Source of the DNA: Candidatus Firestoneibacteriota bacterium
GTDB taxonomy: Bacteria > Oederibacteriota > Muellerivitia > Muellerivitales > Muellerivitaceae
Assembly (NCBI GenBank): GCA_013286205.1
Contig: JABDGD010000009.1
Location: forward strand, 3,759 to 67,758
Direction of reading: 5' to 3'
DNA: 64,000 nt
The notes beneath the pieces were generated by a model. It did no database searches. It had not been told where the DNA came from and worked only from the letters and a program-made list of their open reading frames with translations. The position numbers were made by a program, and so were the translations under genes. This document shows, in pieces, positions 59,904-62,216 of the stretch. Positions within the stretch are counted from its first letter, which is position 1. The number at the start of each line of letters is the position of its first letter.

Positions 59904-60677
59904 TTAGGGGAAAGTGATGTTGTTCGCCAAGAAAGTCACGTTAGCTGTCTGCGCTAACGCGCGTCCTTCTAACGAGGCGCCCGTATTGAAGGTTACTGCC
60001 GTATGAGCCATAACATTTCCCGCGAAGGAAGCTGTGGTATCTAACGAACAATAGCCGGTCACCTGCCAGAAAATGTTGGCAGCTTTGGCCCCGTTGATCA
60101 GATTAACTTTTCGAGCCGAAGCGACTATCAGATTACCCGTCACCTGAATAATGAACACAGCGTTCGAGTTGCCTTGGGCGTCAAAAGTCATATCCGATGT
60201 CGCTAAATGAAGGTCGCCCAAATCCGTATAAAGACCGGCATAAAGCGTTTGACCACCGATATCCCCGCCAGCGGGAATAACAGCTCCACCCGTGCGATGC
60301 GAAGCGTCTGTGTAGGCAGCACCTAAAGCCAGTTCGGCGTTAGTCGCGGCCGTATTGTTAACATCTGTCGCGCCGCCACAGATCACAATAATGCTTCCAG
60401 GAACAGACGGATTGGTACATGCAAGGCCCCCGCAAACCGTTGTGGCTCCCGTGTTGGTAATGCCCGTAGCGGACAACACCCCATAATTAGCCGCCGTACC
60501 TAAAACCACCATAGCCTGAACGGATTGAGCCGTAGCGATAGGCGTTGCGGTAAAAGTAGGCGTGCCAAATCCCCCGCCGGGATGTGAAGGATCTGAAGGA
60601 TTAGAACTGCTGCAACCCACCATCAAAGCCATTGGAAGCAGGGCCATAACTACTAAACTACCGATTAACTTTTTCAT
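59904..60677 (-). CDS. DUF3494 (ice-binding-protein fold) lipoprotein
   Basis: The lipobox is LMVGCSSS. The blocks are AANYGVLSATGITNTGATTVCG, LALGAAYTDA, IGGQTLYAGLY, FDAQGNSNAVFIIQ, NGAKAANIFWQV and GRALAQTANVTF. Confidence 0.75.
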   Translation of the reverse strand: MKKLIGSLVVMALLPMALMVGCSSSNPSDPSHPGGGFGTPTFTATPIATAQSVQAMVVLGTAANYGVLSATGITNTGATTVCGGLACTNPSVPGSIIVICGGATDVNNTAATNAELALGAAYTDASHRTGGAVIPAGGDIGGQTLYAGLYTDLGDLHLATSDMTFDAQGNSNAVFIIQVTGNLIVASARKVNLINGAKAANIFWQVTGYCSLDTTASFAGNVMAHTAVTFNTGASLEGRALAQTANVTFLANNITFP

Positions 60678-60760
60678 TTTATCTCTTTTCTTTATCTATT
60701 CCCGAACCCGAGGGTTCAGGAAGCCAGCACAAACCGGCTCACATCCGGTTAAATCAAAAA

Positions 60761-61342
60761 CTAAATAAACGACAACCCTACTAAGAGCGTAAAAGTGCCG
60801 TTTTGAACGTTTTGAGTGGAATTCACATTGGTCAACCCAATTTCATAACGCCCGCTCACCAAGAACTTGGAGAAGGTCGCTTGAGCTCCAATAATCAACC
60901 CAATATCGGTTTGATTGATATTGGCCACACCCGCCACATTGGTGTCAAAAGCCGGACCCAATAAAATACCGGGATTGAAAACGGGTATGCCAAAGGTGAC
61001 ATCCAAAAGAACCGGAACTTCGATGTAGTTCAGTTGGTAAGCGTTGCCGTTATATTTGCCGCCCTTTTGCTCATAAAGAATTTCCGGCTGAAGCGCTAAA
61101 GACGGGGTGAGAGGCAGGTCGGCAAAAGCGCCGGCCACAAATCCCAGGCGTGAAGCGAAAACATCTTTGGCGTCAGACCCGTTAAATCCCGCCAAATCAA
61201 TACCGCCTTCCACACCCAACCTGGGCCCCGAACCTTCCTCGATCCCGCCTTCAGCTCTCGCCAAAGAACTTCCCGTCGCGAAAAGACACAAACAACTTAT
61301 AGTTAATAAAAACTTTTTCATTTCTTTACCTTTCATCGTCAT
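60761..61342 (-). CDS. Outer-membrane beta-barrel protein (PorT/OMP_b-brl_2-like), paralog of 18711..19304
   Basis: The blocks are LGVEGGIDLAGFNG, ASRLGFVAGAF, QPEILYEQKGGKY and YIEVPVLLD. ATG 61321 (MKKFLLT) is an alternative start. Confidence 0.7.
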   Translation of the reverse strand: MTMKGKEMKKFLLTISCLCLFATGSSLARAEGGIEEGSGPRLGVEGGIDLAGFNGSDAKDVFASRLGFVAGAFADLPLTPSLALQPEILYEQKGGKYNGNAYQLNYIEVPVLLDVTFGIPVFNPGILLGPAFDTNVAGVANINQTDIGLIIGAQATFSKFLVSGRYEIGLTNVNSTQNVQNGTFTLLVGLSFI

Positions 61343-61344
61343 AG

Positions 61345-62139
61345 TTAGGGGTGGGTAATTTTATTGGTTAACAGCGTTACGTTTCCGTTTTCAGCCAATG
61401 CCCGGCCCGTCAAGACCGCTCCCGTATTCAGCGTCACTGAGGTATAGGCCATGATATTTCCCACCATGGAAACCGTGGTATCCATGGAACAATAGCCCGC
61501 TGCCGTCCAAAAAACGTTGGCCGCTTGCGCGCCGTTAGTCAAAATGATTTTGCGGCCCGGACCAATAACCAGATTATTGGTCGACTGGAAAATAAAGATT
61601 GAATTAATATTTCCATTGCCGTTCAAGGTTAAGTCAGACATAGCCACATTGAGATTGCCTCCGCAATTGTATAAACCGGGATAAAGAGTCTGGCCTCCGA
61701 TATCGGCGCCCGCGGGAATAGAAGCTCCACCCGACCGTCCCGAAGCGTCCGTATAAGCCGTTCCCAGGTTTAGTTTGGCGATATTCGCCGCGCCGTCACC
61801 CACGTCAATCGCGCCGCCGCAGGATTCCACAATCGCTGGCGAACCGGTCACCGAGGTCGAACCATTCGGATAACAGCCGTAACCACCGCAGGTCGTCGTC
61901 GGACCGCTATTGGTAATCCCCGTATAAGAGAGAACCACATAATTGGCCGCATTTCCCAAATTAACCGTGGTTTGCAAGGTGGTTTGAGGTGTTGAATAAG
62001 GGGCCTGTGTGGCGGTTGAGGTGGGACCCGGAGTAGACGACCCTCCTACTGGACCCGAACCGCCGCTATTAGCGCAGCCAATCACAAACAACACAGGAAG
62101 CGATACCAATACAAACAAACCGCCAATAAGCTTTCTCAT
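61345..62139 (-). CDS. DUF3494 (ice-binding-protein fold) lipoprotein
   Basis: The lipobox is FVIGCANS. The blocks are AANYVVLSYTGITNSGPTTTCG, LNLGTAYTDA, IGGQTLYPGLY, NGAQAANVFWTA and GRALAENGNVTL. Confidence 0.75.
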   Translation of the reverse strand: MRKLIGGLFVLVSLPVLFVIGCANSGGSGPVGGSSTPGPTSTATQAPYSTPQTTLQTTVNLGNAANYVVLSYTGITNSGPTTTCGGYGCYPNGSTSVTGSPAIVESCGGAIDVGDGAANIAKLNLGTAYTDASGRSGGASIPAGADIGGQTLYPGLYNCGGNLNVAMSDLTLNGNGNINSIFIFQSTNNLVIGPGRKIILTNGAQAANVFWTAAGYCSMDTTVSMVGNIMAYTSVTLNTGAVLTGRALAENGNVTLLTNKITHP

Positions 62140-62200
62140 TTAAATTTCCTTAACTATTCTTGGACAATTACAAACGCTCATGAATCCAGGCCTTAGTTAA

Positions 62201-62216
62201 AGCAAGTAACATGCCC
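62201..62216 (-). promoter_or_regulatory. Sigma-54 (-24/-12) promoter
   Basis: The minus strand reads GGGCATGTTACTTGCT, 63 nt upstream of ATG 62139. Confidence 0.75.

Follow-up and report, generated by a model that had tools for sequence, protein, structure and literature searches.

Results

Three predicted DUF3494 lipoproteins in two probable transcription units

We analysed a 64,000-nucleotide stretch (hereafter the window) of a Candidatus Firestoneibacteriota metagenome-assembled genome (MAG; assembly GCA_013286205.1, contig JABDGD010000009.1), which is 2.23 Mb in size and 67% complete, and concentrated on three genes for predicted lipoproteins of the DUF3494 family, whose bacterial members have the most widespread ice-binding fold. 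Two of them, ice-binding-protein homologs IBP-A (61345..62139, 264 aa) and IBP-B (59904..60677, 257 aa), stand on either side of a gene for a small outer-membrane (OM) beta-barrel (60761..61342), and the third, IBP-C (37993..39075, 360 aa, GTG start), lies 21 kb from this cluster. All four genes are on the minus strand, and all are present as open reading frames where an earlier reading of this DNA (the original prediction) had placed them. A fourth DUF3494 paralog of 280 aa is encoded on another contig of the genome (G000 contig C19; L002 1273-3272).

Family membership, for which the original prediction had named a profile search as the check, was borne out by full-length matches of 154.9-195.6 bits to PF11999 (Ice_binding, formerly DUF3494; 208 positions, Pfam gathering score 28.7 bits). 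IBP-A (E 5e-47, 160.6 bits), IBP-B (E 3e-45, 154.9 bits) and IBP-C (E 1e-57, 195.6 bits) each cover positions 1-208 of the profile, and the fourth paralog scores 169 bits. Homologs of these proteins are already named 'ice-binding family protein' by public annotation pipelines.

The lipoboxes that had been noted on the three proteins are likewise readable in the sequence: VIGC in IBP-A, MVGC in IBP-B and ITGC in IBP-C, each ending at Cys22 and each preceded by a basic n-region and a hydrophobic core. All three N-termini thus have the features by which we recognised substrates of signal peptidase II (SPII), namely an n-region, an h-region and a lipobox of the form [LVI][ASTVI][GAS]C within the first ~25 residues. 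Among 71 aligned homologs Cys22 never varies and Gly21 is at least 90% conserved; a lipobox is found in 80 of 119 homologs, most of the others being gene calls truncated at the 5' end. By these features IBP-A, IBP-B and IBP-C are assigned to a lipoprotein subfamily of DUF3494. The fourth paralog has an atypical lipobox, STSC.

IBP-A is laid out as a signal peptide with lipobox, a disordered Pro/Ser/Thr tether and a beta-solenoid with a flanking helix, and is 57% identical to IBP-B in alignment. The tether of IBP-C is Thr/Asn/Ala-rich and reaches ~140 residues; it is encoded by degenerate 12/24/36-nt tandem repeats (window 38690-38874), and its length may vary between strains. A pair of cysteines in IBP-A, Cys84 and Cys107 (window about 61819-61890), is at least 90% conserved in this DUF3494 subfamily and absent from EfcIBP, the closest solved relative (see below). 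The two residues may be joined by a disulfide in the cap region, as would suit a protein located outside the cytoplasm.

Sigma-54 promoter and enhancer motifs precede the DUF3494 genes

We defined sigma-54 promoters by GG at -24 and GC at -12 at fixed spacing, in a context resembling TGGCAC-N5-TTGCW. Nine copies of the motif GGCAY-N5-TTGCT are present in the window, where 0.2 would be expected, and all nine are intergenic, on the minus strand, and co-oriented with the minus-strand genes that they precede. One of them is the promoter of the three-gene unit of IBP-A, barrel and IBP-B (gGGCATGTTACTTGCT, 62201..62216, minus strand; motif GGCATGTTACTTGCT at 62201-62215), 76 nt before the ATG at 62139 and with a predicted transcription start near 62190. 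IBP-C has a promoter of its own (aGGCACGTTACTTGCT, 39136..39151, minus strand; motif GGCACGTTACTTGCT at 39136-39150), 75 nt before the GTG at 39075. A -12-like copy, TTTTTACTTGCT, which lacks the -24 GG, is found at window 39319-39335, ~170 nt upstream of the IBP-C promoter, and looks from its sequence like a decayed promoter duplicate.

Candidate enhancer sites (upstream activating sequences) accompany both promoters. Upstream of the three-gene unit, a half-site, TCAGTTTGAT (62329..62338, minus strand), lies ~115 nt upstream of the -24 element, with a degenerate direct copy, CTGTTTTGAT, on the same strand at 62308-62317. The half-site TCANTTTGAT occurs 12 times in the window versus 0.83 expected, mostly in dyads and about 100-200 nt upstream of other sigma-54 promoters. 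IBP-C is preceded by an imperfect dyad, TCAAACGGG-N11-TCATTTTGA(T) (39354..39383, minus strand), about 205-235 nt upstream of its promoter and of the same architecture as the dyads at 37565-37596 and 45851-45885. The fourth paralog, too, has the exact GGCACGTTACTTGCT promoter and a TCAAAATGA-N13-TCACTTTGA enhancer dyad upstream; together with the IBP-A and IBP-C promoters, this makes all DUF3494 transcription units of the genome sigma-54 units.

The strongest support for sigma-54 control comes from comparison with relatives. About 20 DUF3494 lipoprotein genes of relatives of the FCPU426 type (candidate division FCPU426) carry the sigma-54 motif 72-80 nt before the start codon, with its position conserved at loci L005, L007, L009, L010, L015, L087, L089 and L091-L093; at L087, which encodes an IBP-A ortholog at 78% identity, the motif stands at -77 and an upstream half-site is present as well. 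Among 80 DUF3494 loci the motif is concentrated in this clade, with single cases in one Myxococcales and one Bacteroidia MAG. We had considered a link between sigma-54 and DUF3494 across all phyla and dropped it, the motif being rare in these 80 loci outside the FCPU426-type clade. The claim of the original prediction that the operon is under sigma-54 control and that IBP-C has a separate promoter of this kind is thus upheld by motifs at 76 and 75 nt that are conserved in relatives.

A candidate activator of this regulon is encoded in the window at 48602..50221 (minus strand) and has a sigma-54 motif of its own at 50292-50306. It is an enhancer-binding protein with XylR_N, V4R, AAA+ (sigma-54 interaction) and HTH_8 domains, and RpoN itself is encoded elsewhere in the genome (Sigma54_DBD, E 8.7e-65, in G000:C18). 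The activator has the domains of XylR/DmpR-type proteins, and the regulon shares with theirs a -24/-12 promoter and an upstream dyad about 100-230 nt away. The two differ in their targets, which are genes of aromatic catabolism in XylR/DmpR-type regulons and here are genes for IBPs, BON and CsbD proteins, proteins resembling late embryogenesis abundant (LEA) proteins, superoxide dismutase (SOD) and outer-membrane proteins (OMPs). Neighbours in the regulon encode BON, CsbD, DUF2934, SOD, LysM, rhodanese and OmpA-like proteins and GGDEF cyclases; with the enriched promoter and enhancer motifs, they support the membership in a stress-type regulon that had been proposed for these genes. We hold both this regulon membership and the lipoprotein nature of the three proteins to be highly likely. 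A full-text literature search returned no paper containing both "ice-binding protein" and "sigma-54". Membership in the DUF3494 family is itself ordinary; a defined promoter and activator for IBP genes are not described in the literature searched.

A probable single transcript for IBP-A, the barrel and IBP-B

On the gene strand, terminators outside coding sequence are found only before the promoter and after the last gene of the three-gene unit. The first (62353..62379, minus strand; a 12-bp stem followed by a T-run) is the intrinsic terminator of the upstream gene at 62406-62780 and sets the 5' boundary of the unit. The second (59838..59876, minus strand) follows IBP-B and consists of a 14-bp stem and U7, with a minimum free energy (MFE) of -25.7 kcal/mol and z = -3.66. 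Between barrel and IBP-B lies an 83-nt spacer (60678..60760, minus strand) that can form two adjacent stable hairpins with no U-tract (MFE -26.6 kcal/mol, z = -3.07), and no terminator was called there. No sigma-70-like site was found on the gene strand of the unit. A separate promoter for IBP-B was considered and rejected, since the spacer contains neither a sigma-54 motif (at up to 2 mismatches) nor a sigma-70-like site.

The simplest reading of this layout is that IBP-A, the barrel and IBP-B are carried on one transcript, with transcription presumably reading through the spacer hairpins. The hairpins may serve mRNA processing or stability and in this way determine how much IBP-A is made relative to IBP-B. 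A scan of the window against Rfam gave no RNA family at threshold.

The predicted solenoid of IBP-A resembles a proven ice binder

An AlphaFold2 model of IBP-A, built from the 71-homolog alignment, has a mean predicted local distance difference test (pLDDT) score of 88.9 and a predicted template-modelling score of 0.81. The tether is disordered in the model, with pLDDT <50 at residues 21-35 and low values until ~45; the solenoid begins near residue 58 and comprises about 20 short, stacked strands and a single long helix at 116-133. All 31 significant matches to this model in a Foldseek search of the PDB are DUF3494 IBPs. The first among them is EfcIBP (6EIO), an IBP that comes from the Antarctic ciliate Euplotes focardii's bacterial consortium and was deposited simply as an antifreeze protein; the superposition reaches a template-modelling (TM) score of 0.90 with a root-mean-square deviation of 1.5 Å. 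On this model, IBP-A is predicted to adopt the DUF3494 fold, a right-handed triangular beta-solenoid with a long helix alongside.

EfcIBP is also the best solved relative by sequence. IBP-A matches it at E 2.6e-40 and 40% identity, and IBP-C, its closest paralog among the three, at E 1.2e-52 and 50% identity over the solenoid. The ice-binding motif of EfcIBP is T-X-T or T-X-D (PMC7277481). In alignment, IBP-C keeps the motifs of both EfcIBP faces, with TLTTA for TLTTT, VTMQ for VTME and LTLDA for VTFDA, and IBP-A and IBP-B keep T-x-T or T-x-D motifs on coils 5 and 6. EfcIBP thus shares PF11999 with the window proteins, a cap-less right-handed beta-solenoid and flanking helix with IBP-A, and the T-x-T and T-x-D motifs with IBP-C. 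It differs from them in lacking the SPII lipobox, the long tether and the conserved Cys84/Cys107 pair, and from IBP-A and IBP-B also at coil 3 of the putative ice face. Ice-binding sites are known, as one title indicates, to be poorly conserved (PNAS 2012 109:9360). Taken together, sequence kinship and the model make ice binding by the window IBPs plausible, and we think it rather probable that at least IBP-C would show measurable ice-recrystallisation inhibition (IRI) in vitro.

IBP-type proteins attached to cells have been described before. The Nostoc protein nIBP, which shares 52% identity with EfcIBP, is active on ice and believed to be anchored to the cell through PEP-CTERM (PMC7783341), and an IBP-like SPII lipoprotein of Flavobacterium sp. 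PL002-1792, described in 2026, is cold-induced, has IRI activity and gives freeze-thaw protection (PMC13413566). With SfIBP_1, the ice adhesin of Shewanella frigidimarina, these proteins have in common an IBP-type solenoid held at the cell envelope, and PL002-1792 sets a precedent for the stress induction that we propose here. Anchor types and lineages differ, and SfIBP_1 may have an anchor of the lipoprotein type; promoters and regulators have not been defined for these proteins, whereas the window IBPs have identifiable sigma-54 promoters and an enhancer.

The barrel is a lineage-wide OM protein and not a dedicated partner

The gene between IBP-A and IBP-B encodes a barrel of 193 aa with matches to PF13568 (56.6 bits) and PF13505. 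Translation probably begins at the MKK codon at 61321, which lies 23 nt past the IBP-A stop; M8 and K9 of the longer frame are nearly invariant among 63 homologs. An AlphaFold2 model has 8 strands, and its Foldseek matches are OmpA, OmpX, Ail, OprF-N, OmpW, PagL and NspA (E 1e-5 to 1e-3); by sequence, no match was found among solved PDB barrels. Like the OmpA N-domain, OmpX/Ail, OmpW, PagL and NspA, the window barrel has eight strands in ~165 mature residues; unlike the OmpA N-domain, OmpX, OmpW, PagL and NspA, it is sigma-54 regulated and multi-copy in its lineage. In the original prediction it was called a PorT-type barrel. The OM barrel stands, and 'PorT-type' is no more than a family label: PorT-named proteins are assigned to Pfam OMP_b-brl_2 (PF13568), the generic family that this barrel matches, and no PorT-specific model matched, the only further hit beyond PF13568 and PF13505 being a sub-threshold one to the TDE1717 subfamily (38 vs 135 bits). 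Source annotations name its homologs 'porin family protein'.

A barrel between two paralogs invites the idea of a dedicated surface-display device, in which the IBP tethers thread through the barrel or the barrel plays an accessory role of the PorT kind in type IX secretion (T9SS). Tether threading through a barrel has been proposed for RcsF with OmpA, OmpC and OmpF in E. coli, and the long disordered N-terminal tethers of the IBPs would suit it. Gene order speaks for such a device to a degree: IBP-barrel-IBP recurs in two other contigs (76-78% identity), barrel-IBP-IBP is found in L096 and barrel-barrel-SOD-IBP in L011, and immediately downstream of the fourth paralog comes an OmpA-type gene, encoding an N-terminal barrel and an OmpA C-domain, a second pairing of an IBP with a barrel in this genome. 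The barrel itself argues the other way, having eight strands and no evident channel; an eight-stranded barrel like OmpA, OmpX, OmpW or PagL is too narrow for a folded 20-kDa solenoid. Nor do the IBPs carry a T9SS C-terminal domain, the PF11999 match ending within 2-4 residues of each C-terminus. SprA (PF14349) had no match in G000, G008 or G051, three genomes of the taxonomic family, nor in any control genome searched.

The distribution of the barrel follows the lineage and not DUF3494. The genome encodes five paralogs of it, one of which, 57% identical, lies in the window at 18711..19304 (minus strand). Every one of the 11 genomes sampled from the taxonomic family has the barrel, although 4 of them have no DUF3494, and 6 genomes that do encode DUF3494 but belong to other families of the phylum have no barrel. 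When 84 loci were searched by tblastn, it turned up solely in L011 and in the copies belonging to the window itself (L003, L004), and most relatives have it unlinked or at a distance of 6-15 kb from their IBP genes (G008, G033, G038, G021, G015). This genome-wide pattern led us to reject the barrel as a dedicated DUF3494 partner, so that the surface display through a dedicated barrel put forward in the original prediction is not supported; we regard a display device as very improbable. We take the barrel to be a co-regulated, 8-stranded structural OM protein and not an exporter.

What the recurrent gene orders do fit is an older block of stress genes. The sigma-54 unit at window 15192-20517 (minus strand; motif at 20503-20517) encodes, in order, a rhodanese, a 176-aa protein, the barrel paralog, an Fe/Mn SOD, a LysM protein, an LEA-like protein of 172 aa and an AI-2E transporter. 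L011 and L096 show synteny with this unit, and their DUF3494 genes lie between the barrel or SOD and LysM; the corresponding slot in the window (17511-17958) is empty. These layouts fit an ancestral block of rhodanese-x-barrel-(SOD)-IBP(s)-LysM-LEA-like-AI-2E, of which the window would keep a version without IBPs at 15.2-20.5 kb, the IBP genes and one barrel copy having apparently moved to 59.9-62.1 kb. The adjacency of barrel and IBP genes among relatives would then reflect that block.

Which way the anchored solenoids face is a separate matter. A periplasmic orientation, in which the IBPs hang from the inner leaflet of the OM and protect the periplasm and peptidoglycan without touching external ice, would leave their regulation unchanged. 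It is the default outcome of Lol transport in E. coli, LolA is encoded in the genus (see below), the co-regulated BON and LysM proteins are periplasmic types, and no known surface-export signal or Slam/T9SS component was found, the SprA search lacking a working control. Against this, the 140-residue tether of IBP-C would, if extended, be longer than the width of the periplasm, and exposure on the surface has been proposed for those anchored IBPs that are described to date (PMC7783341, PMC13413566). We consider a periplasmic orientation rather unlikely and favour one in which the IBPs face outward.

Surroundings of IBP-C and distribution of DUF3494

IBP-C is flanked by two paralogous proteins of 106/107 aa with no Pfam match (36500-36820 and 39549-39872) and by two paralogous 80-aa BON proteins (37170-37412 and 40410-40655), which suggests a duplicated module of a BON gene and a small-protein gene around it.

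In the phylum PF11999 is patchy, being present in 16 of 61 genomes, and it is expanded in the taxonomic family, where 7 of 11 genomes have 1-15 copies each. Tandem arrays are common across phyla, with at least 2 DUF3494 copies in 35 of 84 loci. Contig C75 of G051 (L091, L092) holds nine DUF3494 genes in ~20 kb, out of 15 copies in that genome; some of the nine carry long fused extensions at the N- or C-terminus, in open frames of 766-850 aa, and 2 kb past the array there is a barrel homolog. Among the nearest relatives of the window's genome are MAGs that are labelled candidate division FCPU426 and come from palsa and bog samples; the genome with 15 copies is a palsa MAG. An exact protein match is present in SRR8424006 and JGI 3300020663.

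Discussion

The explanation that best accounts for these observations, and one that we judge moderately likely as a whole, is that the window encodes lipid-anchored solenoids of the DUF3494 ice-binding family that are transcribed only from sigma-54 promoters of a local, enhancer-dependent stress and envelope regulon. A cue would act on the enhancer-binding protein and so open the sigma-54 promoters, giving one transcript shared by IBP-A, the small barrel and IBP-B and another for IBP-C. After processing by Lgt and Lsp and transport by the Lol system, the IBPs would be anchored in the outer membrane on flexible tethers of ~35 residues (IBP-A and IBP-B) or ~140 residues (IBP-C), and would most probably point outward. 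In this position the solenoids could use their flat B (and C) faces to bind ice or ice-like ordered water and thereby inhibit recrystallisation beside the envelope during freeze-thaw, while the co-induced BON, CsbD, LEA-like, SOD, LysM and small-OMP genes would protect the envelope by other means. That freeze protection is the physiological role seems to us somewhat short of an even chance.

Several observations weigh against parts of this explanation. The V4R sensor of the activator suggests a chemical cue and not cold. In alignment, coil 3 of IBP-A (NLVIG) and of IBP-B (NLIVA) no longer has its T-x-T strand, and the DUF3494 paralogs are old and divergent, at 33-57% identity. DUF3494 proteins are frequent in habitats that do not freeze, with no role known for them there (PMC11645318; PMC7783341), and FCPU426 has been reported from tropical soil also. 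The three IBPs reach 108-127 bits against NF045625, the NCBIfam equivalog model (IBP_CFB) of Bacteroidota IBPs, versus a cut-off of 400 bits; they are homologs of characterised IBPs and not NF045625 equivalogs. Finally, a genome search found neither Lgt nor LolA in the window's own MAG at its 67% completeness; both are encoded in a 99%-complete genome of the same genus (Lgt, E 1.7e-50; LolA, E 2.2e-15).

As an alternative, the DUF3494 lipoproteins might act on an ordered surface or polymer other than ice, such as the cell's own exopolysaccharide, peat or plant polymers or minerals, or serve as envelope spacers; their induction as part of the stress regulon would then aid adhesion, aggregation or tolerance of desiccation. 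According to the literature, habitats that do not freeze are the source of hundreds of DUF3494 proteins, which may have other binding partners (PMC7783341, PMC11645318). The age and divergence of the paralogs and their tandem arrays, up to 15 per genome, suggest diversified specificities; the GGDEF cyclases, LysM and LEA-like proteins of the regulon are typical of biofilm or desiccation programmes, and the activator has a sensor of the small-molecule (V4R) type. Set against this, the closest characterised relatives, by sequence and by fold, are all proven ice binders, IBP-C retains the face motifs of EfcIBP, no non-ice ligand has ever been shown for the DUF3494 family, and permafrost-peat samples are among the sources of the nearest MAGs. 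A non-ice role is a possibility that we take seriously and hold to be unlikely, and we prefer to read the proteins as ice-binding.

As a tentative extension, doubtful on present evidence, a single V4R-type sigma-54 activator could run a coordinated freeze and desiccation protection programme in FCPU426, an uncultured lineage of phylum rank, in which lipid-anchored IBPs are deployed together with LEA-like, BON, CsbD and SOD proteins and small OMPs.

Lipid-anchored, stress-induced IBP-like proteins already have a precedent (2026, PMC13413566). About the regulation of DUF3494 genes almost nothing is known, and their copies in non-polar soils are an acknowledged open question (PMC7783341, PMC11645318). 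At the locus described here, a lipoprotein subfamily that stands near a proven IBP belongs to a recognisable sigma-54 and enhancer regulon of stress and envelope genes, and our analysis removes the tempting, unsupported idea of a dedicated display barrel from it. If the V4R/sigma-54 programme is real, it would give bacterial ice-binding proteins their first defined regulatory circuit and offer a way into the function of DUF3494 proteins in soils that freeze seasonally, as distinct from polar ice.

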